Source: a bacterium (GTDB lineage Bacteria; SM23-31; JAUVVT01). From it: a stretch of 11,784 nt of DNA. Within the stretch, counting starts at the first letter, position 1, and every line of letters begins with the position of its first letter. Under the pieces are notes generated by a model that saw nothing but the letters and a program-made list of their open reading frames with translations, ran no database searches and was not told the origin of the DNA. Shown here piece after piece: positions 1-11,784 of the stretch. The stretch is from contig JAUVVT010000015.1 of the NCBI GenBank assembly GCA_030604505.1, forward strand, positions 1 through 11,784, in the 5' to 3' direction. The position numbers and the translations under genes are program-made.

Positions 1-1184
1 AAGATAAATATATATTGCAATATAATACCAATGATGTTATTGAAGGATTAAAAGATGTAATAAATATAGTCGGTGCAAAAAAGGGAGTAATCGCATTAAA
101 AAGAAAATATAGAAAAATTGTAAGTTTAATAAATGATGCTGTTAAGAATGAAGAAAATATAGAAACTTTTACACTCAATGATTTTTATCCGTCAGGAGAT
201 GAACATATACTTGTCAATGAAATTACAGGACTTGTTGTTCCGGAAGGTGGAATTCCTCTTGATATTGGAATACTTGTCAATAATGTTGAAACAATATTAA
301 ATATTAGAAATGCTCTAAAGGGGAATTCCGTGACCAGAAAAACCATATCGGTTATGGGGGCTGTCAAATATCCAAAAGTAATAAACGTTCCTATTGGTAT
401 TTCTATTAACGAGGTGATTGCACTCATTGGTGGAACAACTGTTTCGGATTTTTCTGTTATAGTTGGCGGACCGATGATGGGTGAGGTTATTAATGATTTG
501 GATATTCCTATAAACAAACTTACAGCAGGAATAATTATTCTGCCTGCGGATTCGTTTCTTGTAACAAGAAGCAAAATACCATTTGAAAGGAATCTGAGAT
601 TATCGGCATCTGTATGTCTTCAATGTATTGAATGTACAGTATTGTGCCCAAGAAATCTTCTTGGTCATTCAATCAAACCGAATGAGATTATGAGGTCAAT
701 AAATTATAAAAAGATTGAACCGACAGACATCTTTACCGCATCATTCCTTTGTTCAGAATGCGGTATATGTGAAATCTACGGCTGTATAATGGGAATTTCA
801 CCAAAAATGGTTTACGTCAGAGTAAAAAAAGAATTAATTGCTCAGGGGGTGAGAAACCCTCATAATAATAAAAAACCCGTTCCTAATAAATTCATAAAAG
901 AGAGAAGAATTCCTGTCGACAGGTTGACTAACAGGCTTCGGCTTCCTCAATACGATGTGATGCCGGAATATAACGATATGGAAGTAATTGCCTCAGATGT
1001 AAAAATAAATCTGCTTCAGCATTATGGCGTTCCGGCGGAACCTGTGGTTAAGGTCGGTGACCTCGTGAAAGAAGGAGAAGTAATTGGAAAAGTTCCTGAT
1101 GATAAAATCGGTGCTTATGTTCATGCATCTATTAAAGGAACTGTTGCAAATATAAATTCTGAATATATAGAAATAAAGGCATAA
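1..1184 (+). CDS. pduS: PduS-like RnfC-family Fe-S flavoprotein (cobalamin reductase homolog), 5' partial; the ORF is open to the window edge
   Basis: There is no in-frame stop between position 3 and the TTG at 15, and the translation lacks the N-terminal GxGGAGFP nucleotide-binding segment, so about 70 residues lie upstream of the window. Strong PduS-like blocks are present: GVIALKRKYRK, FYPSGDEHIL, IGILVNNVETILNI, VTRKTISVMGAV, VPIGISINEVIALIGG, GGPMMG. There are two ferredoxin-type Cys motifs, CLQCIECTVLCPRN (CX2CX2CX3CP) and CSECGICEIYGC. The C-terminal barrel-sandwich segment VVKVGDLVKEGEVIG...YVHASIKGTV resembles the RnfC N-terminal and PduS C-terminal domain. It ends at TAA 1182-1184. 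Confidence 0.8.
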   Translation, partial: DKYILQYNTNDVIEGLKDVINIVGAKKGVIALKRKYRKIVSLINDAVKNEENIETFTLNDFYPSGDEHILVNEITGLVVPEGGIPLDIGILVNNVETILNIRNALKGNSVTRKTISVMGAVKYPKVINVPIGISINEVIALIGGTTVSDFSVIVGGPMMGEVINDLDIPINKLTAGIIILPADSFLVTRSKIPFERNLRLSASVCLQCIECTVLCPRNLLGHSIKPNEIMRSINYKKIEPTDIFTASFLCSECGICEIYGCIMGISPKMVYVRVKKELIAQGVRNPHNNKKPVPNKFIKERRIPVDRLTNRLRLPQYDVMPEYNDMEVIASDVKINLLQHYGVPAEPVVKVGDLVKEGEVIGKVPDDKIGAYVHASIKGTVANINSEYIEIKA

Positions 1185-1201
1185 AATATAAAGGAAATAA
1201 A

Positions 1202-1816
1202 GTGAATAATTCAAATAAAGACATTAATAATAAATCCGATAATAAGAGTAATACCTTAAGTGATTATAAGATGCCTGCAATTGCATTACTGGAATTTTCG
1301 AGTATTGCCGCAGGAGTCTCTTCTACTGATGAAATGATAAAAAAGGCAAAGATCGAAGTATTGGAATCTTCTCCAATCTGTCCCGGAAAATATCTGCTTT
1401 TGATTGCTGGAGAAGAAGGAGAAGTCGAAGCATCTTTTAAAAAGGGAAAAGAAATTTCAGATGGTTGGATTGTTGATGAACTCTTTATTCCAAATATTCA
1501 TAAACAGGTAATTCCTGCTATTAATGCTACAACTCAGATTAAAGACCTGAAAGCTATTGGGGTTATTGAAACATTTTCAGTTGCATCAGCTATAATTGCG
1601 GCTGACCAATCCGTAAAGAATGCTAATATCGATTTGATTGAAATTCGGCTTGCAAAGGGAATCGGAGGTAAAGCATTTTATACTTTTACCGGTCCTCTTG
1701 AAGAAATAGAGGCGGCAGTGGTGGCAGGTTCGGAATACCCAGAAAGTGTCGGATTAATGGTAAATAAAATCATTATTCCAAATCCAGATAAAAACATCTA
1801 TGAATTTATTTTGTGA
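1202..1816 (+). CDS. pduT: BMC-T shell protein, PduT-like, with tandem BMC (Pfam00936) domains and a conserved pore cysteine
   Basis: Two BMC domains are visible: AIALLEFSSIAAGVSSTDEMIKKAKIEVL... and AIGVIETFSVASAIIAADQSVKNANIDLIEIRLAKGIGGKAFYTF. The match to Salmonella PduT is close: SSPICPGKYLLL vs KTICPGKFLLM, IPNIHKQVIPAI vs LANIHPSVLPAI, IIPNPDK vs VIPRPHE. The Cys in ICPGKY corresponds to the PduT Cys38 that ligates a 4Fe-4S cluster. The GTG start at 1202 has a good SD (AAGGA, 6-nt spacer). An alternative ATG at 1271 (MPAIALLEF) aligns exactly with the PduT N-terminus and would remove an N/K/S-rich 23-aa extension. Confidence 0.85.
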   Translation: MNNSNKDINNKSDNKSNTLSDYKMPAIALLEFSSIAAGVSSTDEMIKKAKIEVLESSPICPGKYLLLIAGEEGEVEASFKKGKEISDGWIVDELFIPNIHKQVIPAINATTQIKDLKAIGVIETFSVASAIIAADQSVKNANIDLIEIRLAKGIGGKAFYTFTGPLEEIEAAVVAGSEYPESVGLMVNKIIIPNPDKNIYEFIL

Positions 1817-1902
1817 TATGGTACAATTTACGAAGTTTGAGTTTTTCATTATAGCCAATTCGTAAATCTAAAATCGTGTTTTGTATTTACAGGAGACAAA
1901 CA

Positions 1903-2202
1903 GTGCATCTCGGAAGAGTAATAGGCAACATTACAGCAACCAGGAAATATTCTGAGCTAAAAGGAGAGAAATTTATGATAATTGAACCTGTTGACCATTC
2001 CCTCCAGAAAAAGGGTGTGTCGGTCATTGCGATTGATGTTGCTCAGGCTGGTGAAGGAGATATTGTATATTTCATCGAGGGTAGAGAAAGTACTTTCGCA
2101 CTCGATTTTTATTACGTCCCTGTTGACGCAACAATTGTGGGAATTGTTGATAACGTTTATAAGGATAAAATATTATTTGGAGAATCAAGTGATACTATGT
2201 AG
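1903..2202 (+). CDS. BMC-P vertex (pentamer) shell protein, EutN/PduN/CcmL family, paralog 1
   Basis: VHLGRVIGNITATRKY...KFMIIEPVD...VIAIDVAQAGEGDIVYF...ATIVGIVDNV is the typical EutN_CcmL (PF03319) pattern. The start is probably the GTG at 1903, 7 nt after AGGAGA (1890-1895); the ORF track begins at an upstream GTG at 1876. About 99 aa. TAG stop at 2200-2202. Confidence 0.8.
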   Translation: MHLGRVIGNITATRKYSELKGEKFMIIEPVDHSLQKKGVSVIAIDVAQAGEGDIVYFIEGRESTFALDFYYVPVDATIVGIVDNVYKDKILFGESSDTM

Positions 2203-2464
2203 AGTGCTCGGAAATGTTACTTCAACTGTAAAACATCCTGAATATTCTGGAAAGAGGATTATGCTTGTGCAGCCGGTAAATCCTGAAACCTGTGAACCGT
2301 TGAGCAAATCATTCTTGTCCGTCGATACAGTATCATCCGGACCGGGAGAGATTGTGCTTGTAAACAAAGAGGGTGGCTCATCACGAATTGCTGTACGAAA
2401 TGAATGGGCTCCTGTTCACAGCACTATTACTGCTATTGTTGATAGTATTGATTTAAAAAAATAA
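2189..2464 (+). CDS. BMC-P vertex (pentamer) shell protein, EutN/PduN/CcmL family, paralog 2
   Basis: VILCRVLGNVTSTVKHPEYSGKRIMLVQPV...SVDTVSSGPGEIVLVNKEGGSS...HSTITAIVDSI is parallel to paralog 1 and to EutN/CcmL. The GTG start at 2189 is preceded by GGAGAA (2179-2184) and overlaps the 3' end of paralog 1 by 14 nt in another frame. About 91 aa. The upstream part of the 1982..2464 ORF is an out-of-frame shadow of paralog 1. Confidence 0.75.
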   Translation: MILCRVLGNVTSTVKHPEYSGKRIMLVQPVNPETCEPLSKSFLSVDTVSSGPGEIVLVNKEGGSSRIAVRNEWAPVHSTITAIVDSIDLKK

Positions 2465-2469
2465 AGATT

Positions 2470-2584
2470 CAAAGACACAGAGGCACGAAGATGCAAGGAA
2501 GAAAATTGTCATGTTTGAATAAAAGAGCATATTATCTTGCTTAATATTTTTATATCTTTGTGCCCTTTAGACTCTGTGTCTTTG
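2470..2584. repeat. Perfect 13-bp inverted repeat (caaagacacagag / ctctgtgtctttg) plus an inner ggcac/gtgcc pair, enclosing ~73 nt. This could be a long RNA stem-loop or a MITE-like element.
   Basis: 2470-2482 is caaagacacagag, and 2572-2584 is its exact reverse complement. The inner 2482-2486 ggcac pairs with 2560-2564 gtgcc, leaving a 7-nt bulge on the 3' side. A tiny ORF, atgcaaggaagaaaattgtcatgtttgaataa (MQGRKLSCLNK), lies inside. Confidence 0.6.
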
Positions 2585-2609
2585 CAAATATATCTGTAGG
2601 ATATTATTT

Positions 2610-3395
2610 ATGCCAGAAAGAGAAGCGAGAACAGAAATGATTAAGGTTTGCAAAAGACTTTATCAAAAGGAATATGTTACTGCTTATGACGGGAATGTAT
2701 CTATAAAGCTTAGCAGTAATAGATTTCTGATGACTCCATCAGGATTCTGTAAGGGAGACCTGACAGAAAGAGATTTAATTGTTTGTGATAATGAAGGTAA
2801 AAATTTATCAGGAGCGTATGATGTAACTTCAGAAGTAGTGATGCATTTAGAGGCATTTCGACAAAGACCCGATATTAATGCTGTCGTCCACGCCCATCCG
2901 CCTCTGGCAACGGCTTTCAGTCTTGCCGGAATTTCTATTGCAAGGTGTATTCTTCCAGAGGTCATCTTTACGCTCGGTTCAATACCAACAACAGAATACG
3001 CAACACCGACCACCCCAGAAAATGCAGATGTAATAAAGGATTTGATTAAAACACATGATGCGATGATACTCGACAGGCACGGCTCGCTTACTGTTGGAAA
3101 GGATGTCTGGTCAGCATACTTTAAACTTGAAAAAATTGAGCATACTGCAAAAATTACATTTGTCGCAAGACAGCTCGGTTCAATTAAAACCCTTTCATCT
3201 GAACAATTGAAAGCGGTTGCTGTAATTGCAGAAAAATTCGGTGTGCAAAGTGTCATCCAGGATTGCTTTAATTGCGGTGCCTGCGGAAAAGAGGTATCGG
3301 AATCCTCCGATATTCAGCATTCCGATAAGAATGAAAATGTAATTGAAAATGTTTCTAATGCAATTACTAATGAAATACTTAAAACTTATGGCTGA
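2610..3395 (+). CDS. Class II aldolase/adducin-family protein (L-fuculose-1-phosphate / L-rhamnulose-1-phosphate aldolase-like) with a ~45-aa C-terminal extension, a putative BMC encapsulation peptide
   Basis: YDGNVSIK...MTPSG...E..MH...AVVHAHPPLATAF (HxH zinc ligands) is diagnostic of FucA/RhaD/AraD class II aldolases. The catalytic domain ends near residue 215. It is followed by CFNCGACG, an acidic/Ser linker, and the amphipathic ENVIENVSNAITNEILKTYG. An SD-like AGGA sits 8 nt upstream of the ATG. TGA stop. Confidence 0.8.
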   Translation: MPEREARTEMIKVCKRLYQKEYVTAYDGNVSIKLSSNRFLMTPSGFCKGDLTERDLIVCDNEGKNLSGAYDVTSEVVMHLEAFRQRPDINAVVHAHPPLATAFSLAGISIARCILPEVIFTLGSIPTTEYATPTTPENADVIKDLIKTHDAMILDRHGSLTVGKDVWSAYFKLEKIEHTAKITFVARQLGSIKTLSSEQLKAVAVIAEKFGVQSVIQDCFNCGACGKEVSESSDIQHSDKNENVIENVSNAITNEILKTYG

Positions 3396-3441
3396 TGAAA
3401 TTATTATTGAACTTTTTTAAAATTAAGATGTTTATATAATT

Positions 3442-3879
3442 ATGGAAATACTGAAAAGATACGGCTCGGTTGTTTCATTATCAGGAGGCATTGCATATGT
3501 CTTTATGAGACATGAGAATGAATGCTCCGGAGACCACAACCAGTGTCCTTTTAAGGACAGCCATGTAAATACTATAATGATGAAAGAGTTTATTATTACT
3601 GCGAATAATAAAATAAATTCAAAAATCGGGCAGTTTGTGGAAATATCGGTATCGGAAAAGAATTTAAGCCGGTTTGCATTTTTATTATTCATCTTTCCGC
3701 TGTTGATGATATCTTTAGGTGCTATGCTTGGATATTTCATATCTGATGATTTTACTTCATATAATAATTTATTTTCAGTAATCGGTGGAATTTTCGGACT
3801 TTTATTGAGTATATACATTATCAGATTAATAGAAAAAAGGTCTAAGAATTCCTTTAATATTACTAAAGTAATCGCCTAA
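3442..3879 (+). CDS. RseC/MucC-family (SoxR-reducing / sigma-E regulator C-like) small membrane Fe-S protein
   Basis: The N-terminal GSVVSLSGGIAYVFMRHENECSGDHNQCPF matches the RseC G.V.S...A.V...CS.C....C pattern. GQFVEISVSEKNL is followed by two hydrophobic helices (FAFLLFIFPLLMISLGAMLGYFI and VIGGIFGLLLSIYIIRLI), as in E. coli RseC (GQKVELGIAEGSLL..., ILGGIGGFLIA). Confidence 0.65.
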   Translation: MEILKRYGSVVSLSGGIAYVFMRHENECSGDHNQCPFKDSHVNTIMMKEFIITANNKINSKIGQFVEISVSEKNLSRFAFLLFIFPLLMISLGAMLGYFISDDFTSYNNLFSVIGGIFGLLLSIYIIRLIEKRSKNSFNITKVIA

Positions 3880-3966
3880 TAAATCTTCTTTAATTTATTT
3901 ACTTCTTTTTTTAGTCCAAAAATAGAAAAATATTATAGCAGCGAATTACACGAATTGCTTAAATGT

Positions 3967-3994
3967 TCACTGTTGGTGTTGTCACCAACGGTGA
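3967..3994 (+). terminator. Candidate rho-independent terminator hairpin downstream of the RseC-like gene
   Basis: tcactgttggtg-ttgt-caccaacggtga forms a 12-bp stem (one G.U pair) with a 4-nt loop, followed by ttaatttctcc. It sits in the 225-nt gap before the next gene. Confidence 0.35.
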
Positions 3995-4236
3995 TTAATT
4001 TCTCCAACAGAAAATAAAATTATAGATTATTAATAAACTATTTTTTATATTGTAAAAATTGTACCGCCAAAAAATTAACATTAAAAAATCAAGCTATACA
4101 AAAAATGAAATCAAAACCCGATTGTATCCCTTGTTATTTAAAGCAGGTTTTATCTGCTTCAAAAGAAGTAACTGATGATTCTTCCGAAATATGGAGGATT
4201 TGAGCAGAAACCTCAAAAATAATTCCCAACTTTTCA

Positions 4237-4965
4237 ATGGATGCATCACCTGCGGAAAATTCAACCTATTCAATTTGGAAGGCAAACGAAATATTTAACA
4301 CAAAAGATCCTTTTGAAAAAAAGAAAAAATACTACAATGAGAAAGCTCTTTCAATGTATCCGGAGTTAATAAAAATGGTCGAAGATTCTGAAGACAGCTT
4401 TGAAGCCGCAGCAAGAGTGGCTGTAATAGGAAATGTTATCGACCTCGGAATATCGACAAATATAAATATAGAAAAAGCCATAGAAGAAGTCTTTTCAAGC
4501 GGATTTTCAATAAATCACATTAATTTTCTAAAAAATGATCTGAAATCTGCAAAAATGCTATTATATCTCGGGGATAATGCCGGCGAAATAGTTTTTGATA
4601 GAATTTTTATCGAAGAAATAAAGAAGTATGGAGTAGAAGTTGTTTTTGCTGTTAAGAGTGCCCCTGTATTAAATGATGTTACGGCTGTTGATGCACATGG
4701 TACAGGTATAGATGAGATTGCAAAGGTCATTGAAACAGGTTCTCCTATGATCGGAGTGATTTTAAAAACATGTTCCGATGAATTTCTGAAATATTTTAAT
4801 GAGGCGGATATTATTATTAGTAAAGGGCAGGGAAACTTTGAAACATTGGACGAAACAGATGCAAATATTTATTTTATTCTAAAAGCAAAATGTGATGTCG
4901 TTGCTGAAAGACTTAATGTTAAAATCGGTGACGTAATGCTGATTAAGAATAAAATTCTGAAATAA
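4237..4965 (+). CDS. DUF89 / ARMT1-like metal-dependent (damage-control) phosphatase. The conserved N-terminal 32 codons (4105-4200) are in the same frame but cut off by an in-frame TGA at 4201-4203.
   Basis: GNVIDLG, LGDNAGEIVFD and SKGQGNFE are DUF89 (PF01937) signatures. Upstream, ATG 4105 encodes MKSKPDCIPCYLKQVLSASKEVTDDSSEIWRI, the family's CxxC N-terminus, then TGA, then AETSKIIPNFS and the Met at 4237, all in one frame. It is either a pseudogene or sequencing error, or a recoded or read-through stop. Confidence 0.7.
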   Translation: MDASPAENSTYSIWKANEIFNTKDPFEKKKKYYNEKALSMYPELIKMVEDSEDSFEAAARVAVIGNVIDLGISTNINIEKAIEEVFSSGFSINHINFLKNDLKSAKMLLYLGDNAGEIVFDRIFIEEIKKYGVEVVFAVKSAPVLNDVTAVDAHGTGIDEIAKVIETGSPMIGVILKTCSDEFLKYFNEADIIISKGQGNFETLDETDANIYFILKAKCDVVAERLNVKIGDVMLIKNKILK

Positions 4966-5096
4966 CAAAAAAAATTTCTGAAGTATGGAATATAAACTGC
5001 AGTGAGTAAGTTAAATAAAGTGAAAGAAAATATCTTCATATTTAGTCAAACAAATAGCATGAAAAATGTTAAATAAAGAATAACTGTGTTTTTCCA

Positions 5097-7313
5097 ATGT
5101 CTAAGTTTTTTACAAAACTATTATTATTCTTGGCCATATTTTATTTATCCCCGGATATTTCTCTGTCAAATGAAAAAATTTTATCTGAAATAATACACAA
5201 AGCACAACAGAATAATCGTAAAATTTTTGAAAGTATCGATAATCTAAAATACAAGGTTCATTCAAGAACATACATTTACTTTGGTTTCACACCATTTGAT
5301 GTAAATCTTGTCCCATACTTTGAAGAATATTATGCTGATGGATACTGGGAAAAGCCGGACAGCACCGCTCTTAAAATATATGCCTTAAAAGTAATTAGTG
5401 CAGGTAAGGATTCATCAAAATCTTATTCTGTTGCAACTAAAGAATTATCCCTTCCCAATCCGTTTCTGTTCGATTACAATATTCTCTCGAAAAACAAAGG
5501 TAGTGTTCATAAACGTCCTTATTACCCTTTTTCAGAAGGAGCCGAAAAATATTACAATTACGAATATGAAGGTTTTGTAAAATCAGGAATGATGGATGTA
5601 ATTTCTATTGCCGTTACACCTAAATTTTTGGATGTCCCATCAGTTGAGGGTTCATTCTTATTAGATAGAAATGATTCCTGGATAGTCGCATCCGATTTTA
5701 AGTATAATGACGCTGCAAAATTTACTTCGCAGATTAGCAAAAAAAAGAGGTCCATCAGTATAAGTATAAAAATTACGAGTGCAGAAGAACGCACTGTCCG
5801 TACAAAGAAAAGTTTATATTATTCCCCTTTCTGGCTGCCTGAACTGATGGAAGAAGACTTTTTCCTATATATCTGGGGTATGAAAGTAAAGGTTCACAGA
5901 ATAATAGAATTTGACTCCTATGTTATTAATACCCCAAATTTCAAAACTGTAAAACCGGCTAAAAGAATTGAATATTCCATTGACAGTCAGTTGCAGGATT
6001 CAATTTTAACTCAACCAGAATATCCCGACAGATTATCAAAAGAAGAAGAGGAAGAGATACTGGCTAAAATTGAGGATAAAATACGTTCGGAAGAGCTGTT
6101 TAGTGACCTGAAAGACCTCGCAAAAGTTGCAGAAAAATCGGCAATGAAAAGACTAAAGGAAAAGGGGGGCAAACTCTTTTCTTATGGGGAAAGAACATTT
6201 AACTTCTTTCAATATAACAGGGTCGAAGGTCTCTATTTTGGAAATAATTATAAATTCGCAAATCCATATATTAAAAACTTTGCTCTCTCTGTTGCAGGTG
6301 GATATGGTTTTGAAGATAAAAAATTTAAAGGAGAACTGGTCTTATTAAAATTATTTGGCAAAAAAAGAAATTTTTTTGTAGATTTAAAAATTTTTAGTAA
6401 ATTAGGTTTTGAAGAAGAAGAAAATCTAATCTCTACAGGGAAAAATACATTTACTGCTCTATTTTCTAAAGAAGATTACAGAGATTATTATGCAAAGAAG
6501 GGATTTGCTTTTGACATAAGATACAAACTCCCCGAAAGCAATATAGGAATCGGTCTTTCATTTGTTTCTCAAATTGAAAGCTCAGTTGGAAAAAATACAG
6601 ATTTCAGTATTTTCAGAAGAAATCATCCATTCAGATTAAATCCTGAAGCAGTAGAAGGAAGATATAATGGATTGGAATTTTTATTGAAATATAACACCTA
6701 TCGTATAAATGCAGAAACTTATTTTAAGTACACAAACAGAGATATGCTTAAGAGTGATTTTTCTTATTCAATATTTGGCTTTAAGCTTGGATTAAAACAT
6801 AGACTCACATATTTCAGCAGATTATTTTTTAATCTGAATAGCGGCTTTTCGTCCGGTTCCGTTGCTCCTCAGAAATGGTTTGATTTTGGGGGTAAAGTTT
6901 TTGCAAATTATAGAGGCAAATTAAGAGGAGTTGATTATAAATATTTTACCGGCGACAGAATGGTCTCCAGTGTTATTGAATATCATCTTAACGGCAGAGC
7001 ATTAAAAAAGATTGGTCTGAACAATAAATTATTTTCAGCGGTGAAATTTATTTTGTATAATGGAGTTGGATGGAGCGAACTTTCTGACAGAAGTAGAAAA
7101 CTCTTAATTAGGCCACCAAGGTTGACACCTGATGGAGTTATAATTATGGATGTCAAAGGTAGAGGTAACTTAAATGTGCCGTCATTGACTACTGATGGAG
7201 TTTATTACGAATTTGGACTGGGTATCTCTGATATATTGAATATATTCCGCTTTGATTTTATTCATAATAATATAGACAACAAGATTATCTTTGAATTCAA
7301 CTTTCTCAGATGA
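5097..7313 (+). CDS. Hypothetical secreted / outer-membrane protein, 738 aa. It has an N-terminal signal peptide, a central acidic coiled-coil segment and a beta-strand-rich C-terminal half.
   Basis: The N-terminus MSKFFTKLLLFLAIFYLSPDISLS is a signal peptide. The central segment is KEEEEEILAKIEDKIRSEELFSDLKDLAKVAEK. The C-terminal ~350 aa show alternating hydrophobic/aromatic beta-strand patterning, ending ...IIFEFNFLR. I recognise no family with confidence. Confidence 0.5.
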   Translation: MSKFFTKLLLFLAIFYLSPDISLSNEKILSEIIHKAQQNNRKIFESIDNLKYKVHSRTYIYFGFTPFDVNLVPYFEEYYADGYWEKPDSTALKIYALKVISAGKDSSKSYSVATKELSLPNPFLFDYNILSKNKGSVHKRPYYPFSEGAEKYYNYEYEGFVKSGMMDVISIAVTPKFLDVPSVEGSFLLDRNDSWIVASDFKYNDAAKFTSQISKKKRSISISIKITSAEERTVRTKKSLYYSPFWLPELMEEDFFLYIWGMKVKVHRIIEFDSYVINTPNFKTVKPAKRIEYSIDSQLQDSILTQPEYPDRLSKEEEEEILAKIEDKIRSEELFSDLKDLAKVAEKSAMKRLKEKGGKLFSYGERTFNFFQYNRVEGLYFGNNYKFANPYIKNFALSVAGGYGFEDKKFKGELVLLKLFGKKRNFFVDLKIFSKLGFEEEENLISTGKNTFTALFSKEDYRDYYAKKGFAFDIRYKLPESNIGIGLSFVSQIESSVGKNTDFSIFRRNHPFRLNPEAVEGRYNGLEFLLKYNTYRINAETYFKYTNRDMLKSDFSYSIFGFKLGLKHRLTYFSRLFFNLNSGFSSGSVAPQKWFDFGGKVFANYRGKLRGVDYKYFTGDRMVSSVIEYHLNGRALKKIGLNNKLFSAVKFILYNGVGWSELSDRSRKLLIRPPRLTPDGVIIMDVKGRGNLNVPSLTTDGVYYEFGLGISDILNIFRFDFIHNNIDNKIIFEFNFLR

Positions 7314-7358
7314 TACTTATAATTAAATCTAACTTGAACTTAATATGAGAGGTGGGCC

Positions 7359-8075
7359 GTGAAATTAGCTAATATCTTCAAGAAAAATCAGATTAAATAT
7401 TTAATCGCATTATTAATCTTCTTTAATAATCTTACTTTATTATCAGCAGGTGAAATCGGTGGCGGAGTGGGATTTATGTATGGAGCTAAATTGGCAAACA
7501 TAAATGACTTAAATGACCAGCTTGTAGAGGACGGATTTCAGGAGTTTGACCCTATTTTACAATCAATAGGCGGTTTAGGTTATATTAATTATAATAAGTT
7601 TATTCTTTCGCCGGAATTTGCGAGTTTCAGTAAGAAATTAGCTTCCGGAAATACTGACATAAGCTATAAAGGTTCACAGATATTTGTTAACCTGGGTTAT
7701 GCAGTGGTGGAGGAGGAGAGAGCATTGGGATTTGTATATATTGGAGCCGGAAGGGGAAGTGCTTCTTTGAAATTTACTGATCCATCGGGTTTTGTTAATT
7801 TCGCTGATGAAGAAATCACATCCGCTGAAGAACTTAATACTGATACCTTTTTAATTAATTTGGGATATAGTTATCATTTTCTAATGAATTTTTCAAAAAA
7901 TCAGAACAGAAAGGCTGGTACGACAGTCGGAATAAGAGTAGGGTATATTTTTTCTCCCGGAGCCAAAAAATGGGAATATAGCGGAGCAGAAATAGCAGGA
8001 GCACCAGATGCTAAATTTAATGGAGTTTTTATTAGGTTAGTTATCGGTGGATGGATAAATAAAATATCTGAATAA
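7359..8075 (+). CDS. Putative outer-membrane beta-barrel protein (small porin/OmpA-like barrel), 238 aa
   Basis: GTG start with SD GAGAGGTGG. The signal peptide is KYLIALLIFFNNLTLLSA. Gly/aromatic-rich alternating strands (GYINYNKFILSPEF, FVNLGYAVV, LINLGYSYHF, GIRVGYIFSPG, FIRLVIGGWI) are typical of OM barrels. Confidence 0.5.
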   Translation: MKLANIFKKNQIKYLIALLIFFNNLTLLSAGEIGGGVGFMYGAKLANINDLNDQLVEDGFQEFDPILQSIGGLGYINYNKFILSPEFASFSKKLASGNTDISYKGSQIFVNLGYAVVEEERALGFVYIGAGRGSASLKFTDPSGFVNFADEEITSAEELNTDTFLINLGYSYHFLMNFSKNQNRKAGTTVGIRVGYIFSPGAKKWEYSGAEIAGAPDAKFNGVFIRLVIGGWINKISE

Positions 8076-8204
8076 CCTTACTCCATAAAAAAGATATTAA
8101 CCGCCAAGCATACGAAGAAAAAAAAGTAAAACAGTATAAAAATCAATTTTCTTTCGTTTCCTTCATGTTCTTTGCAGTTAATAAAAATAAAAAAACGGTG
8201 TATA

Positions 8205-9902
8205 ATGAAAAATTTAAAAAAAATTTTTATAATTACAGCAGCCTGTTTCCTGATTTTAAATTGTGGAGGAAAAATGCAAATAACCGATTTGGTTTTGAAA
8301 AACGGTAAAATTGTAACTATTGATAAAAATAATCCAAGAGCGGAAGCGGTTGCTATTAAAGATGACAAAATCATAGCAGTTGGAACAAATAAGGAAATCG
8401 ATAAATATACCGATATTCAGGTTACCAAAATAATTGACCTTGATGAAAGACTTGTTGTACCCGGATTTATCGATGCACATATTCACTTTGAAGGTGGGGG
8501 AGCTTCTTTGATGCAGATAGACCTTAACGGTGTTACAACATTGACAGAAATTCAAAAAAGAGTCAAAGAAAAGATTGATAAGGTTGAAGATGGTATTTGG
8601 ATTTATGGGCGTGGTTGGGACCATGAAATTCTTCCCGATAAAAAATGGCCCACAAAAGAAATTATCGATGATGTTGCGCCAAAAAATCCTGTGGTGCTTC
8701 GAAGGGTCGATGGACACAGTACTCTTGTAAATAGTCTTGTCCTTAAAATTTCCGGAATTACAGGGAATACACCTGACCCGCGGGGTGGAACAATTATTAA
8801 AAAACCATCTACTGGTAAACCAACAGGAATATTAAAAGAAACCGCTCAGGGATTGATTAAAAGTCCGAAATTATCGAAAAAAGAGAGTTACGATAATAGT
8901 AAGAAAGCTATAAAATTGGCTTTAAAAGAAGCTGCAAGGTTGGGTGTTACCGGTATACATAATTTAACAGGAAACTTTGAGATTTTTCAGGAACTGCTGG
9001 ATAGAAAAGAGCTTACAGTTAGGGTTTATGCATGTGCTTCGATAACTAAAGAAAAAAAAGTATTAGAATCATACAAGGAATGGCAGAAAAAATTCACTAA
9101 TAATAAAAATATGATAAAATTTGGATGCTTGAAAGGTTTTATTGATGGAACTCTTGGTTCGGGAACAGCCGCATTTTTCAAACCGTTTGACGATAACCCG
9201 TCAACAGCCGGTCTTCCAAGAATGACTCAAAAAGAGCTCAATGAACTTGTTGCGATTGTTGATAATGAGGGCTTTCAGATTGCAATTCACGCTATTGGAA
9301 GCAAAGCAAATAATATGATTCTTAATGCCTTTGAAGAAACAATTTCCATAAACGGAAAAAGGGACAGCAGACATAGAAGTGAGCATGCTCAGGTACTTAT
9401 CCCCCAAGACATTCCGAGATTTACACAACTTGGCATCATAGCATCTATGCAGCCAACCCACTGCATTACAGATAAAAAATTTGCAGAAAAAAGAATAGGA
9501 AAAGAAAGATGCAGAGGGGCTTATGCCTGGAAAAGTCTTCTGAATGCAGGTGCACATATAGTATTTGGTACCGACTGGCCCGTTGAACCTTTAGATCCTA
9601 TGGAAGGGCTGTATGCTGCTGTTACAAGAAAAGACCGGAAAGGTGAACCGGGTGACGGGTGGTTTCCTGAAGAAAAAATCTCTATGGAAAAGGCAATAGA
9701 ATTGTATACATTGGGTTCTGCCTATGCTTCATTTGAAGAGAACATAAAGGGTTCAATTCAAATAGGCAAACTTGCTGATATAGTCGTTCTATCACAGGAT
9801 TTATTTGAAATCCCGGAAAATAAAATCATGGATACAAAGGTGGTTTATACAATAATAGGCGGCAAAATAATCTATTCTTCAATCACAGATGCAGCAAATT
9901 AA
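8205..9902 (+). CDS. Amidohydrolase-family (Amidohydro_3, YtcJ-like) metal-dependent hydrolase, lipoprotein
   Basis: VPGFIDAHIHFEGGG is the canonical amidohydrolase metal-binding motif, and GTDWPVEP is a C-terminal family motif. The ATG at 8205 gives MKNLKKIFIITAACFLILNCGG, a lipoprotein signal with an LNC lipobox. The ORF track starts at an upstream TTG at 8172. Confidence 0.8.
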   Translation: MKNLKKIFIITAACFLILNCGGKMQITDLVLKNGKIVTIDKNNPRAEAVAIKDDKIIAVGTNKEIDKYTDIQVTKIIDLDERLVVPGFIDAHIHFEGGGASLMQIDLNGVTTLTEIQKRVKEKIDKVEDGIWIYGRGWDHEILPDKKWPTKEIIDDVAPKNPVVLRRVDGHSTLVNSLVLKISGITGNTPDPRGGTIIKKPSTGKPTGILKETAQGLIKSPKLSKKESYDNSKKAIKLALKEAARLGVTGIHNLTGNFEIFQELLDRKELTVRVYACASITKEKKVLESYKEWQKKFTNNKNMIKFGCLKGFIDGTLGSGTAAFFKPFDDNPSTAGLPRMTQKELNELVAIVDNEGFQIAIHAIGSKANNMILNAFEETISINGKRDSRHRSEHAQVLIPQDIPRFTQLGIIASMQPTHCITDKKFAEKRIGKERCRGAYAWKSLLNAGAHIVFGTDWPVEPLDPMEGLYAAVTRKDRKGEPGDGWFPEEKISMEKAIELYTLGSAYASFEENIKGSIQIGKLADIVVLSQDLFEIPENKIMDTKVVYTIIGGKIIYSSITDAAN

Positions 9903-9926
9903 ATCTTTTCTATTTGTTTCTTTACT

Positions 9927-9964
9927 AAAAGCTAATATCTGGTAGCTAATAACAGGCAGCTTTT
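9927..9964. terminator. Candidate bidirectional terminator in the convergent gap between the amidohydrolase (+) and GDPD (-) genes
   Basis: aaaagct (9927-9933) and agctttt (9958-9964) form a 7-bp inverted repeat flanked by an A-tract on one side and a T-tract on the other. The 24-nt loop is large, so confidence is low. Confidence 0.25.
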
Positions 9965-10879
9965 CTATCTCATATTCAATTTCTCAAGCACATTACTCAA
10001 TCTTCCCGGATAGTCTGTCATTATTGCATCGACGCCTATTTCGATAAGTTCTTCCATCCGTTTCTCGTCATTGATAACCCATGCGTGGAATAGCATACCT
10101 TTTTTATGAATAGTTTTTATCATAGAGGGCTGGGCAACCACAAAGACTTTTGTGGTTGCCGATGGCTGAAGCGCCTGATGTATCGGGCAATAAAAATAGC
10201 CAAGATGCAGTTTGTGTAAAATGTAAAAAAGAATTACATCCCATTTGTGGCAGAAGGATGCTATGTCGGGAGCTGATATTTTTAGCTTTTTTGAAACCGA
10301 AACAAGAGCAGAACCAAGAATAATCCTGTTTTTTAATCCTTTCTCTTTGATTATCTTTATTACTTTTTTTTCAATGGGAGGATTTTTTTGTTTGACTTCA
10401 ATATTAAATCTTAAATCGGGAAAAGTCTCAAAAACATCTATTAATCTGGGTATCTTCAAACCTTTACCTCTGTATGGATAATCGTTTTTTTCCTTGTCTT
10501 TGAACCAATAACCCGCATCTAATTTTTTTATTTCTTCATAAGTATGTTCTCTTATTCGTCCTTTCCCGTTTGTTGTCCTTTCCAATGTCTTATCATGAAT
10601 AACGACTATTTCACCATCCTTTGTTGAATGAACATCCATTTCAAGAACATCGGTATTATACTTTGCAACTGCCATACTGAATGCTAACATTGTATTTTCC
10701 GGATGTTCACCTGAAGCTCCTCTATGAGAAATATGCTTGTATTTCTCCTTAAGTTCAGGATTTACTGAAATAGTTTTAGGACTTTTTAAATATTTTATTG
10801 CGGCAATTAGAAAGAATATAATTAGGGTAATAAAGAAAGATAATATAAGATACGCCATCAGATAATTAACTCCCTGCAC
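9965..10879 (-). CDS. Glycerophosphodiester phosphodiesterase (GDPD family), membrane-anchored
   Basis: HRGASGEHPENTMLAF...LEMDVHSTKDGEIVVIHDKTLERTTNGKG...LDAGYWF is the GDPD catalytic signature (HR..PENT, E.D, HD). The N-terminal hydrophobic helix is LILSFFITLIIFFLIAAI. TAG stop. Confidence 0.8.
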   Translation of the reverse strand: MQGVNYLMAYLILSFFITLIIFFLIAAIKYLKSPKTISVNPELKEKYKHISHRGASGEHPENTMLAFSMAVAKYNTDVLEMDVHSTKDGEIVVIHDKTLERTTNGKGRIREHTYEEIKKLDAGYWFKDKEKNDYPYRGKGLKIPRLIDVFETFPDLRFNIEVKQKNPPIEKKVIKIIKEKGLKNRIILGSALVSVSKKLKISAPDIASFCHKWDVILFYILHKLHLGYFYCPIHQALQPSATTKVFVVAQPSMIKTIHKKGMLFHAWVINDEKRMEELIEIGVDAIMTDYPGRLSNVLEKLNMR

Positions 10880-10952
10880 TGTTGGGAAATTCGCAATAAT
10901 GTGATATTAGATCAAAAACAAAATAATAATTAATAATAAAAATGTCAAATAG

Positions 10953-11498
10953 TTATCTGATAATTTGAGAAATCTCCTTAAAATGCTTATCCTTGGAATC
11001 TTTAATCATCTGAAAAATTACCATTTCTAAACTCGATAACTTCGCTCCTTCAAGCTCCATTCTCCGCAGTGCAATATCACAGTCCATTTTTTGCCTCGAG
11101 GAAACGCCATTCGCAACAAGATGAACCTCATAATCCTTTAAAAGTGCACTTAAAATAGTCTGGATGACACAGACATGTGCTTCAATCCCGCAGATAATCA
11201 GTTGATTTTTATCCGAAAACTTATTCTCGAGCAAATCAGTAAAATCACTGTTCAGAAAACAATTAAAGCTAATTTTTTCGACATATTCATACTCTTTCAG
11301 TTCTTTCTTTATCTCTTTCATAGTCTCTCCCAATCCTTTCGGATACTGCTCACACACCAGTACAGGAATTTTCAATAACTGAAAGACCTTCACAAGTTTT
11401 ATAACATTGGAAATCAGCTCATCTGTATTGAATAAAACAGGTCTGAATTTTTCCTGAATATCAATAATTATAAGTAGAGATTTCTGTTGATCAATCAT
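10953..11498 (-). CDS. Isochorismatase-family cysteine hydrolase (YcaC-like)
   Basis: LLIIIDIQEKF near the N-terminus (catalytic Asp), plus ICGIEAHVCV (the catalytic Cys motif of the isochorismatase family). 181 aa. TAA stop. Confidence 0.75.
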   Translation of the reverse strand: MIDQQKSLLIIIDIQEKFRPVLFNTDELISNVIKLVKVFQLLKIPVLVCEQYPKGLGETMKEIKKELKEYEYVEKISFNCFLNSDFTDLLENKFSDKNQLIICGIEAHVCVIQTILSALLKDYEVHLVANGVSSRQKMDCDIALRRMELEGAKLSSLEMVIFQMIKDSKDKHFKEISQIIR

Positions 11499-11784
11499 AT
11501 CATTCCTTGCTTAAAATTACTGCAAAGTCAGAAAAACCAGCACGAAGATTGCGTATATTTTATATAGAGAGATTGCCAAATCTCTCGTAGTATAGAAGTC
11601 ATTCTGTAGTAACAATTATATTTCTAATCACACAGAACGAACTAATTTATGATTATAAACTAATTAACAAAGCTAAAGTGCCTAAATGAAATGACAATCC
11701 ACATAAATATTATTGATTATAATTATCATTAAATATTTTAATATAATAATTATTTGTTATAATAACAAACGATAATTATTGCTT

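Follow-up and report, generated by a model that had tools for sequence, protein, structure and literature searches.

Gene content of the locus and fold of the aldolase

The DNA examined here is a stretch of 11,784 nucleotides, referred to below as the window, from a bacterium of the GTDB lineage SM23-31 (contig JAUVVT010000015.1 of assembly GCA_030604505.1, positions 1 to 11,784), and its subject is a gene for a class II aldolase-family protein that follows a run of bacterial microcompartment (BMC) shell genes. GC content was 34%. The gene order is PduS, BMC-T(CPGK), BMC-P, BMC-P, aldolase (Table 1), and the order BMC-P, BMC-P, aldolase is repeated in the loci L001, L003, L005 and L089. Genes for an ARMT1/DUF89 phosphatase and a DUF5686 protein lie further downstream in the window, as do unrelated genes.

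The full locus was read from L001, a 19.8-kb contig that carries P0002, a homolog of the window aldolase with 74% identity. In L001, the genes are arranged as RpiR/SIS regulator, CsoS1D-like BMC-T(dp), BMC-H, BMC-P, aldehyde dehydrogenase (AldDH), PduS, BMC-T(s), BMC-P, BMC-P, aldolase, RseC and DUF5686. The PduS/MNdh gene is complete there (439 aa), and the AldDH begins with an amphipathic N-terminal helix resembling an encapsulation peptide (EP). HO/SPU-type loci are described as having a BMC-P triplet, BMC-T(dp), BMC-H and AldDH, with BMC-P, BMC-P and aldolase adjoining one another; the window itself holds only the 3' part (PduS, BMC-T(s), the two BMC-P genes and the aldolase), the full set being seen in L001. 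Neither the window nor L001 contained a DeoC/RpiB gene or the hallmarks of PVM (Planctomycete/Verrucomicrobia) loci, namely an alcohol dehydrogenase of the lactate/malate dehydrogenase type, an acetate kinase and a DeoR regulator. Instead of the PVM set, L001 has the RpiR/SIS regulator alongside PduS. By its gene content, the locus appears to be HO/SPU-like, and it is not of the PVM type that processes fucose and rhamnose. The function of the HO type has been called enigmatic, and the type has been placed close to SPU5 and SPU7; in HO type II loci, the aldolase gene adjoins BMC-P genes (Sutter 2021, PMC8217296).

The Aldolase_II domain (PF00596) covers residues 9-183 of the protein with an E-value of 1.8e-46 and 158.8 bits, compared to a cutoff of 22.2. 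Homology searches returned 2380 relatives, the best of which matched over the full length with 90% identity. The closest species in a GTDB scan had an aldolase at 51% identity, and the sole named relative above 60% was a candidate division KSB1 protein (66%). The Zn ligands H94, H96 and H157, the catalytic E75 and N29 were invariant in an 88-sequence alignment (A1) and align with H92, H94, H155, E73 and N29 of E. coli FucA, whose metal and catalytic residue roles are summarised in PMC11841055. The phosphate-binding residues are likewise intact, the equivalents of FucA Asn29 and Ser71/Ser72 being conserved. With Zn triad, catalytic Glu and phosphate-binding residues all preserved, the enzyme body has a class II aldolase fold, and the assignment to class II with an HxH zinc site (H94-A-H96), made in the first-pass annotation, stands. 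The fold is shared with E. coli FucA at 28% identity. The best match amongst solved structures, in sequence and in fold, was the 3-oxo-tetronate 4-phosphate decarboxylase YgbL/OtnC (6VOP/6VOQ), which is 30% identical but lacks a C-terminal extension and is not BMC-associated.

Sequence matches to YgbL (6vop), S. pneumoniae FucA (4c24) and E. coli FucA (1fua) ended at about residues 186-213, and Foldseek comparisons to 6vop and 1e4c gave 207-213 aligned columns with target template modelling scores of 0.88-0.90. In the AlphaFold2 (AF2) model, the mean predicted local distance difference test (pLDDT) score was 86, with values above 85 across most of the catalytic domain; the last domain helix spans residues 197-209, with the end of the fold at about residue 210-213. 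Because the structure matches stop by about residue 213 and the last domain helix ends at 209, the aldolase carries a genuine C-terminal extension of approximately 45-50 residues, in agreement with the domain end previously placed at about residue 215.

Table 1. Features at the aldolase locus, with positions in the window
Feature	Position	Strand	Reading and basis
PduS/MNdh-type (RnfC-like) flavo-iron-sulfur protein gene, cut at the 5' end of the window	1..1184	+	Complex1_51K, SLBB, Fer4_17, RnfC_N
BMC-T(s) tandem-BMC shell gene with CPGK iron-sulfur pore motif	1202..1816	+	PF00936 x2; PduT-like TIGR02526
Two BMC-P (EutN/CcmL) pentamer genes	1876-2202, ~2189-2464	+	PF03319, E 1e-23 and 1e-18
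Class II aldolase-family gene (Zn, dihydroxyacetone phosphate (DHAP) type)	2610..3395	+	ATG start; 261 aa plus stop; open reading frame and translation, PF00596
Catalytic domain, residues 1 to ~213	2610..3248	+	E75 (2832-2834), H94 (2889-2891), H96 (2895-2897), H157 (3078-3080)
Cys113 codon TGT	2946..2948	+	In loop 106-115, which follows helix 98-105; proposed as fourth ligand
CxxCGxCG motif, C219-F-N-C222-G-A-C225-G226	3264..3287	+	Probable metal-binding clasp; C219/C222/C225 invariant
Variable acidic/Ser-rich spacer KEVSESSDIQHSDK, residues 227-240	3288..3329	+	True flexible linker; AF2 disorder, no conservation
Amphipathic helix ENVIENVSNAITNEILKTY, residues 241-260	3330..3389	+	Candidate C-terminal EP; AF2 pLDDT 72-81
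RseC/MucC-family membrane protein gene, directly downstream of the aldolase	3442..3879	+	PF04246, E 1e-22

The C-terminal helix as a probable encapsulation peptide

Beyond the catalytic domain, the extension consists of a cysteine motif, a spacer and a terminal helix. The spacer has a net charge of -2 (residues 227-241) and pLDDT values below 50 over residues 227-239. Residues 243-257 gave a hydrophobic moment of 0.44, compared to 0.22 +/- 0.11 in 10,000 shuffles, 3% of which reached the query value, with V244, I245, V248, A251, I252 and I256 forming one face of the helix in an 80-220 degree arc. The same property was evident amongst the 119 homologs whose tail runs for 25 residues or more beyond the Cys motif, in which the best 14-mer moment of the last 25 residues was 0.60 versus 0.41 for their own shuffles (Wilcoxon p 4e-20) and 95% of the sequences exceeded their own shuffle mean. 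Across the family, proline and glycine together made up 23% of the spacer and 6% of the helix. The acidic/Ser spacer and amphipathic helix that had been read from the sequence at first are thus confirmed, the spacer being disordered in the AF2 model.

Encapsulation peptides on BMC class II aldolases are not new, having been published since 2014-15. A C-terminal EP was described in 21 of 23 BMC-associated aldolases, on extensions of 23-81 residues, and the text of the same study implies that it is absent from 12 non-BMC control aldolases (Aussignargues 2015, PMC4594438). It has also been reported for the aldolases of ACI loci (Sutter 2021, PMC8217296) and of SPU5 loci (PMC11585597). The published aldolase EPs, which come from PVM, PVM-like, GRM5, ACI, HO and SPU5 loci, share with the tail studied here the protein family, the C-terminal position and a helix of about 17-20 residues. 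Both parts of the EP definition (Kinney 2012; Aussignargues 2015), a terminal amphipathic helix of about 15-20 residues and a poorly conserved flexible linker, are found in this protein. With shell genes immediately upstream, the BMC cargo-targeting architecture proposed earlier matches these published cases. Altogether, the helix is supported as a C-terminal EP, with targeting taken from the literature on the enzyme class.

To place the tail in its genomic context, 80 GTDB loci were scanned with hidden Markov models built from the shell proteins gathered in this analysis. Amongst the loci of Cys-tail aldolases with informative flanks, shell genes were near 59 and absent from three with full flanks. 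Additionally, P0099, a relative at 56% identity that has no tail, is not encoded in a BMC locus; its gene is flanked by an ABC transporter gene and a HemN-like gene. The expectation that the tail is confined to BMC aldolases agrees with 59 of 62 informative loci and with P0099, but L090, L013 and L055 carry the tail with no shell gene within 10 kb, so that the counter-case named in the first-pass annotation, the same tail on non-BMC homologs, is realised in part. The aldolase P0010 of L090 (61% identity) has C113, the motif CYECGACGK and the helix, and no shell gene was found within 10 kb of it on a contig of 1.47 Mb, where its immediate neighbours are without a Pfam match. Aldolases with the same tail in L013 (Anaerolineae) and L055 (Alphaproteobacteria) also had no shell genes within +/-10 kb. 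Since HO-type genomes scatter BMC genes into satellite loci (PMC8217296), these aldolases may be satellite cargo genes. As a separate observation, the L090 aldolase is flanked by four co-directional open reading frames of 115, 194, 124 and 438 aa without a Pfam match (positions 9044-12497 of that locus).

These loci bear on a different explanation, in which the terminal helix serves oligomerisation or regulation in this aldolase subfamily and lies near shell genes through shared metabolism only. The same-tail aldolases without a shell gene within 10 kb, as well as the homologs inside shell loci that lack the helix (see below), would fit this explanation. It is nevertheless countered by the roughly 95% of informative Cys-tail loci that lie near shell genes, by the scattering of BMC genes in HO-type genomes, and by the length, terminal position, amphipathicity and proline/glycine-rich spacer of the helix, all of which fit the EP definition. 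The AldDH of the same locus type, with its analogous N-terminal helix, also speaks against it, and we consider a non-targeting role of the helix very unlikely.

An invariant cysteine motif that covaries with Cys113

The first-pass annotation had described the cysteine cluster CFNCGACG as a linker element that is unusual for EP linkers and might bind a metal. The cluster is present at residues 219-226; the description as a linker did not hold, as the motif is invariant, coupled to C113 and retained in homologs without the helix. In both the 88-sequence alignment A1 and a 63-sequence alignment (A3), C113, C219, C222 and C225 were invariant. Of the best 120 homologs, at 45-90% identity, 106 had CxxCxxC; C113 was present in every one of these, and ten further C113 homologs in this set had other multi-Cys tails. 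Conversely, five homologs without tail cysteines lacked C113, having A (P0077), N (P0094), D (P0099), A (P0110) or E (P0113) at this position; E. coli FucA, added as a reference, has I. The conservation of the motif, invariant down to 45% identity, is far beyond chance.

The coupling extended to the wider family. Amongst 351 members, 141 had both the motif and C113, 66 had C113 only, seven had the motif only and 137 had neither (odds ratio 42, p 1e-36), so that C113 was present in 141 of 148 CxxCxxC sequences. After clustering at 60% identity the corresponding counts were 32, 39, 4 and 87. At least one tail cysteine was found in 200 of 207 C113 sequences, Cys made up 0% of column 113 in the group without both features, and no other Cys column of the family alignment separated the groups. 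In four of the seven CxxCxxC sequences without C113, the tail contained a fourth cysteine, for example CSACVGCGAC and CMNCGTCTGAESC. This substitution for C113 suggests that four ligands are required. The consensus of the 141 sequences was C-x-[N/E/Q]-C-[G 74%]-[A 60%]-C-[G 53%]-[K/R], and the motif was found across many phyla in well over a hundred BMC aldolases, including Polyangia/Polyangiaceae relatives of Haliangium ochraceum.

The motif and the helix did not always occur together. The helix-less type accounts for 17 of the 141 sequences with motif and C113; two of its members, P0088 and P0100, end in ...CEQCGVCKT and ...CNLCGTCGKSGPDDS, respectively, and both follow BMC-P, BMC-P in complete shell loci. 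P0077, by comparison, has an EP-like helix without the motif or C113 and follows the two BMC-P genes of L089. The clasp (as we call the motif with C113) and the helix are thus evolutionarily separable, with clasp-only and helix-only variants both adjoining shell genes. L089 also contains two tandem class II aldolase genes after its BMC-P genes (positions 1666-3275), of which P0077 is the first; the second encodes 246 aa with an N-terminal extension and no C-terminal helix.

In the published description, aldolase linkers are said to lack conservation, although Table 2 of the same study lists 5.5% Cys for them, the highest value of the linker classes (PMC4594438). Conserved cysteines in the aldolase tail were not found mentioned in the BMC literature searched. 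The difference lies in how the tail is divided: the literature counts the whole stretch from domain to helix as unconserved linker, whereas in the proteins studied here its first eight residues are the invariant CxxCGxCG. The reported lack of conservation would favour a cysteine cluster that arose by chance in the composition of a flexible linker. This explanation is refuted, with next to no probability left to it, by the retention of all three cysteines in 106 of the best 120 homologs and in 141 of the 351 wider relatives, by the conserved Gly, Ala and Lys/Arg around them, by the covariation with C113, and by the published Cys content itself.

A possible metal clasp and alternative roles of the cysteines

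Given the conservation of the motif and its covariation with C113, C113 and C219/C222/C225 probably form a four-Cys metal site, either structural Zn or iron-sulfur. The spacing CxxCxxC-x7-C is the structural Zn motif of alcohol dehydrogenases, and CxxCxxC...CP is the ferredoxin-type [4Fe-4S] motif. The aldolase motif shares with these sites the spacing of three cysteines, the Gly after the second Cys and a fourth Cys contributed from elsewhere. It differs in that no profile matched and in that the fourth ligand would come from a different structural element, about 106 residues upstream. Taken together with the terminal helix, we consider it likely that the protein is a lumen enzyme of an HO/SPU-like BMC whose extension is composed of two modules, a cysteine metal clasp and an encapsulation helix.

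By an offset count from the alignment, CxxCGxCG begins where E. coli FucA ends, at FucA residue 215. A metal site at this position would pin the C-terminal segment 210-226 onto the loop 106-115. The active site of FucA lies in a cleft shared with the adjacent subunit, which contributes Tyr113' (PMC11841055). From this arrangement it follows that the clasp would hold the C-terminal segment in place where the active site of the neighbouring subunit opens, and would probably shape or gate that site. Mutagenesis by the Schulz group reportedly showed that the C-terminal tail of FucA is mobile and includes Tyr209' from the adjacent subunit. The clasp would also set the point at which linker and helix emerge from the tetramer, and the helix, following the 14-residue disordered spacer, would bring the aldolase to the cargo core and shell as these assemble. 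More tentatively, the cysteines might constitute a second metal centre (iron-sulfur or Zn) at the inter-subunit active-site mouth that acts as a redox- or metal-dependent switch gating catalysis or cargo assembly, independently of the helix, and that would be a regulatory device conserved in organelles of the HO/SPU type; such a switch is conceivable but doubtful.

In addition to the same-tail aldolases far from shell genes, several results weigh against the two-module reading. AF2 monomer models gave the motif pLDDT values of only 52-67 over the query (53-62 in the motif region) and a helix-less homolog, and the placement of loop 106-116 relative to FucA Tyr113' is ambiguous, as it differs between the three alignments made. 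The covariation statistics were corrected for phylogeny just crudely, by thinning at 60% identity. Fer4, zinc-finger or other Pfam families were not matched on the tails searched, Fer4 not even at E <= 10 for four tails. Moreover, other BMC aldolase lineages vary in their cysteines: ACI Acidobacteria have A113 with APAPIC...CQVV, clostridial PVM-like aldolases Y113 with HPGCKRC...C.C, Latescibacteria C113 with a single Cys, and Moorella P113 with CTGCGAC and three Cys only. A strict Cys4 site, on these sequence patterns, cannot be universal; the tail cysteine most widely kept across the lineages is the one at the C219 position. At C113 itself, the local pLDDT of the loop dips to 71. A C2H2 zinc finger was also considered for the tail, as CGACGKEVSESSDIQH (3273-3320, residues 222-237) matches the 1mey consensus with E 3.8e-5, and was rejected as a chance likeness, the His236 that the CxxC...HxxxH pattern needs being absent in the closest homologs, P0001-P0003.

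The variable patterns are relevant to a metal-free role, in which the cysteines form reversible disulfides (C113-C219 and/or between tetramers) and act as a redox switch for activity or cargo condensation. Many relatives keep C113 and a single Cys at the C219 position, as in the 'PDPAC' of Latescibacteria, and such a pair suits a disulfide better; AF2, for its part, does not show the motif as a confident knuckle. Redox-sensitive cysteines are known to regulate the carboxysome scaffold CcmM. On the other hand, CxxCGxCG, in which a Gly follows each of the last two cysteines, has the spacing typical of metal knuckles, three invariant tail cysteines exceed the need of a single disulfide, and the tail supplies a fourth Cys when C113 is missing, as a four-ligand requirement would have it. 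A disulfide switch is accordingly regarded as unlikely.

The first three cysteines of ferredoxin-type motifs have the form CxxCGxC, and a [4Fe-4S] cluster on the aldolase could take part in an electron-export chain from PduS/MNdh to the BMC-T CPGK pore, or dock the enzyme to this iron-sulfur pore. The motif, PduS and a CPGK BMC-T do occur together in the window and in L001, L009, L012, L021 and L023, and an RseC-family gene follows the aldolase. Both components of the published conduit, PduS/MNdh and a PduT-type BMC-T(s), are encoded upstream, but the aldolase is not part of the system as described (PMC11275729), and the motif also occurs in loci that have neither component. L003 and L005 have the same motif with a BMC-T lacking CPGK and with no PduS, and for this reason a role of the cysteine motif in electron export is unlikely. 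Aldol cleavage also requires no electrons, and the tails do not contain the CxxCxxCxxxCP of Fer4 domains, there being no Fer4 match and no Cys-Pro fourth ligand. The motif is further found in Acidobacteriota, Myxococcota and Nitrospinota, and the lineages concerned are regarded as aerobes. Considering all of this, we hold the probability of an electron-chain function to be low.

Substrate of the aldolase

The first-pass annotation had further placed the cleavage of fuculose- or rhamnulose-1-phosphate to lactaldehyde inside the shell, and this part was not supported. Amongst NCBIfam models, the best was the OtnC decarboxylase NF043034, at 125 bits against a cutoff of 250. The FucA equivalogs TIGR01086, NF005302 and NF040649 scored 71, 99.6 and 117 bits (cutoffs 400, 264 and 250), and RhaD NF002963 scored 49 against 170, leaving the aldolase without a substrate-level family in NCBIfam. 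Fucose or rhamnose genes were not found in the window or in the syntenic L001. Additionally, no conserved Tyr was seen at the positions of FucA Tyr113' and Tyr209': MAFFT pairwise alignment placed Leu115 opposite Tyr113, and Gln213 opposite Tyr209 by offset count, and other alignments shift the loop by 2-7 residues. An equivalence of C113 to FucA Tyr113' was considered and dropped, because the three alignments disagree.

Due to the scores below cutoff, the unrecognisable FucA tyrosines and the missing fucose and rhamnose genes, lactaldehyde production in the shell is an assumption carried over from PVM and GRM5 loci that is unsupported in this HO/SPU-like locus. The reaction would be of the ketose-1-phosphate/DHAP aldol type. 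For such aldolases, the SPU literature proposes the synthetic direction, from glyceraldehyde 3-phosphate and DHAP (PMC11585597).

Neighbouring genes and the spacer hairpin

The PduS/MNdh and CPGK BMC-T(s) genes (window 1-1816) correspond to a pair published for NAD+-recycling electron export, encountered here in an HO/SPU-like locus. The RseC/MucC protein encoded after the aldolase has an N-terminal C-x6-C pair and C-terminal hydrophobic stretches, and its gene is syntenic in L001. With PduS/MNdh and the CPGK BMC-T encoded upstream, it might serve the electron conduit of the shell as a partner at the membrane; the MNdh paper (PMC11275729) makes no mention of RseC. Between the RseC and DUF5686 genes lies the ARMT1/DUF89 damage-control phosphatase gene (4237-4965), absent from this place in L001, and the phosphatase may have a bearing on sugar-phosphate side products.

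A long hairpin (window 2461-2593) lies in the 145 nt that separate the aldolase start from the second BMC-P gene; it has a 24-bp stem and a minimum free energy of -42.1 kcal/mol (z = -4.4), and none of 200 shuffles folded equally well. The homologous spacer of L001 carries an analogous inverted repeat, GGCACAAAG/CTTTGTGCC. An Rfam scan of the window, hairpin included, returned no match. The hairpin may be an element of intra-operon processing, stability or attenuation.

In L005 and L006, an RpiB-DeoC fusion gene (4177-5580), a signature of the SPU3 type, stands at the start of a locus that otherwise agrees with the locus type of the window, both in the order of its shell genes and in having a CxxCxxC aldolase without the helix. 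This fusion gene at the head of a window-type locus links the HO-like and SPU architectures.

Implications for BMC aldolases

The aldolase with its encapsulation peptide is a further case of a known class, and its cysteine element is real and family-wide. The EP tag being textbook for this class of enzyme, the conserved cysteine clasp is the experimentally interesting part. If the clasp is as proposed, aldolase tails borrowed as targeting tags would need to be cut after the motif, where the real linker starts, and expression for activity would depend on metal supply and anaerobiosis. Should the cysteines form a metal or redox site, the finding would bear on how the enigmatic HO/SPU organelles work.

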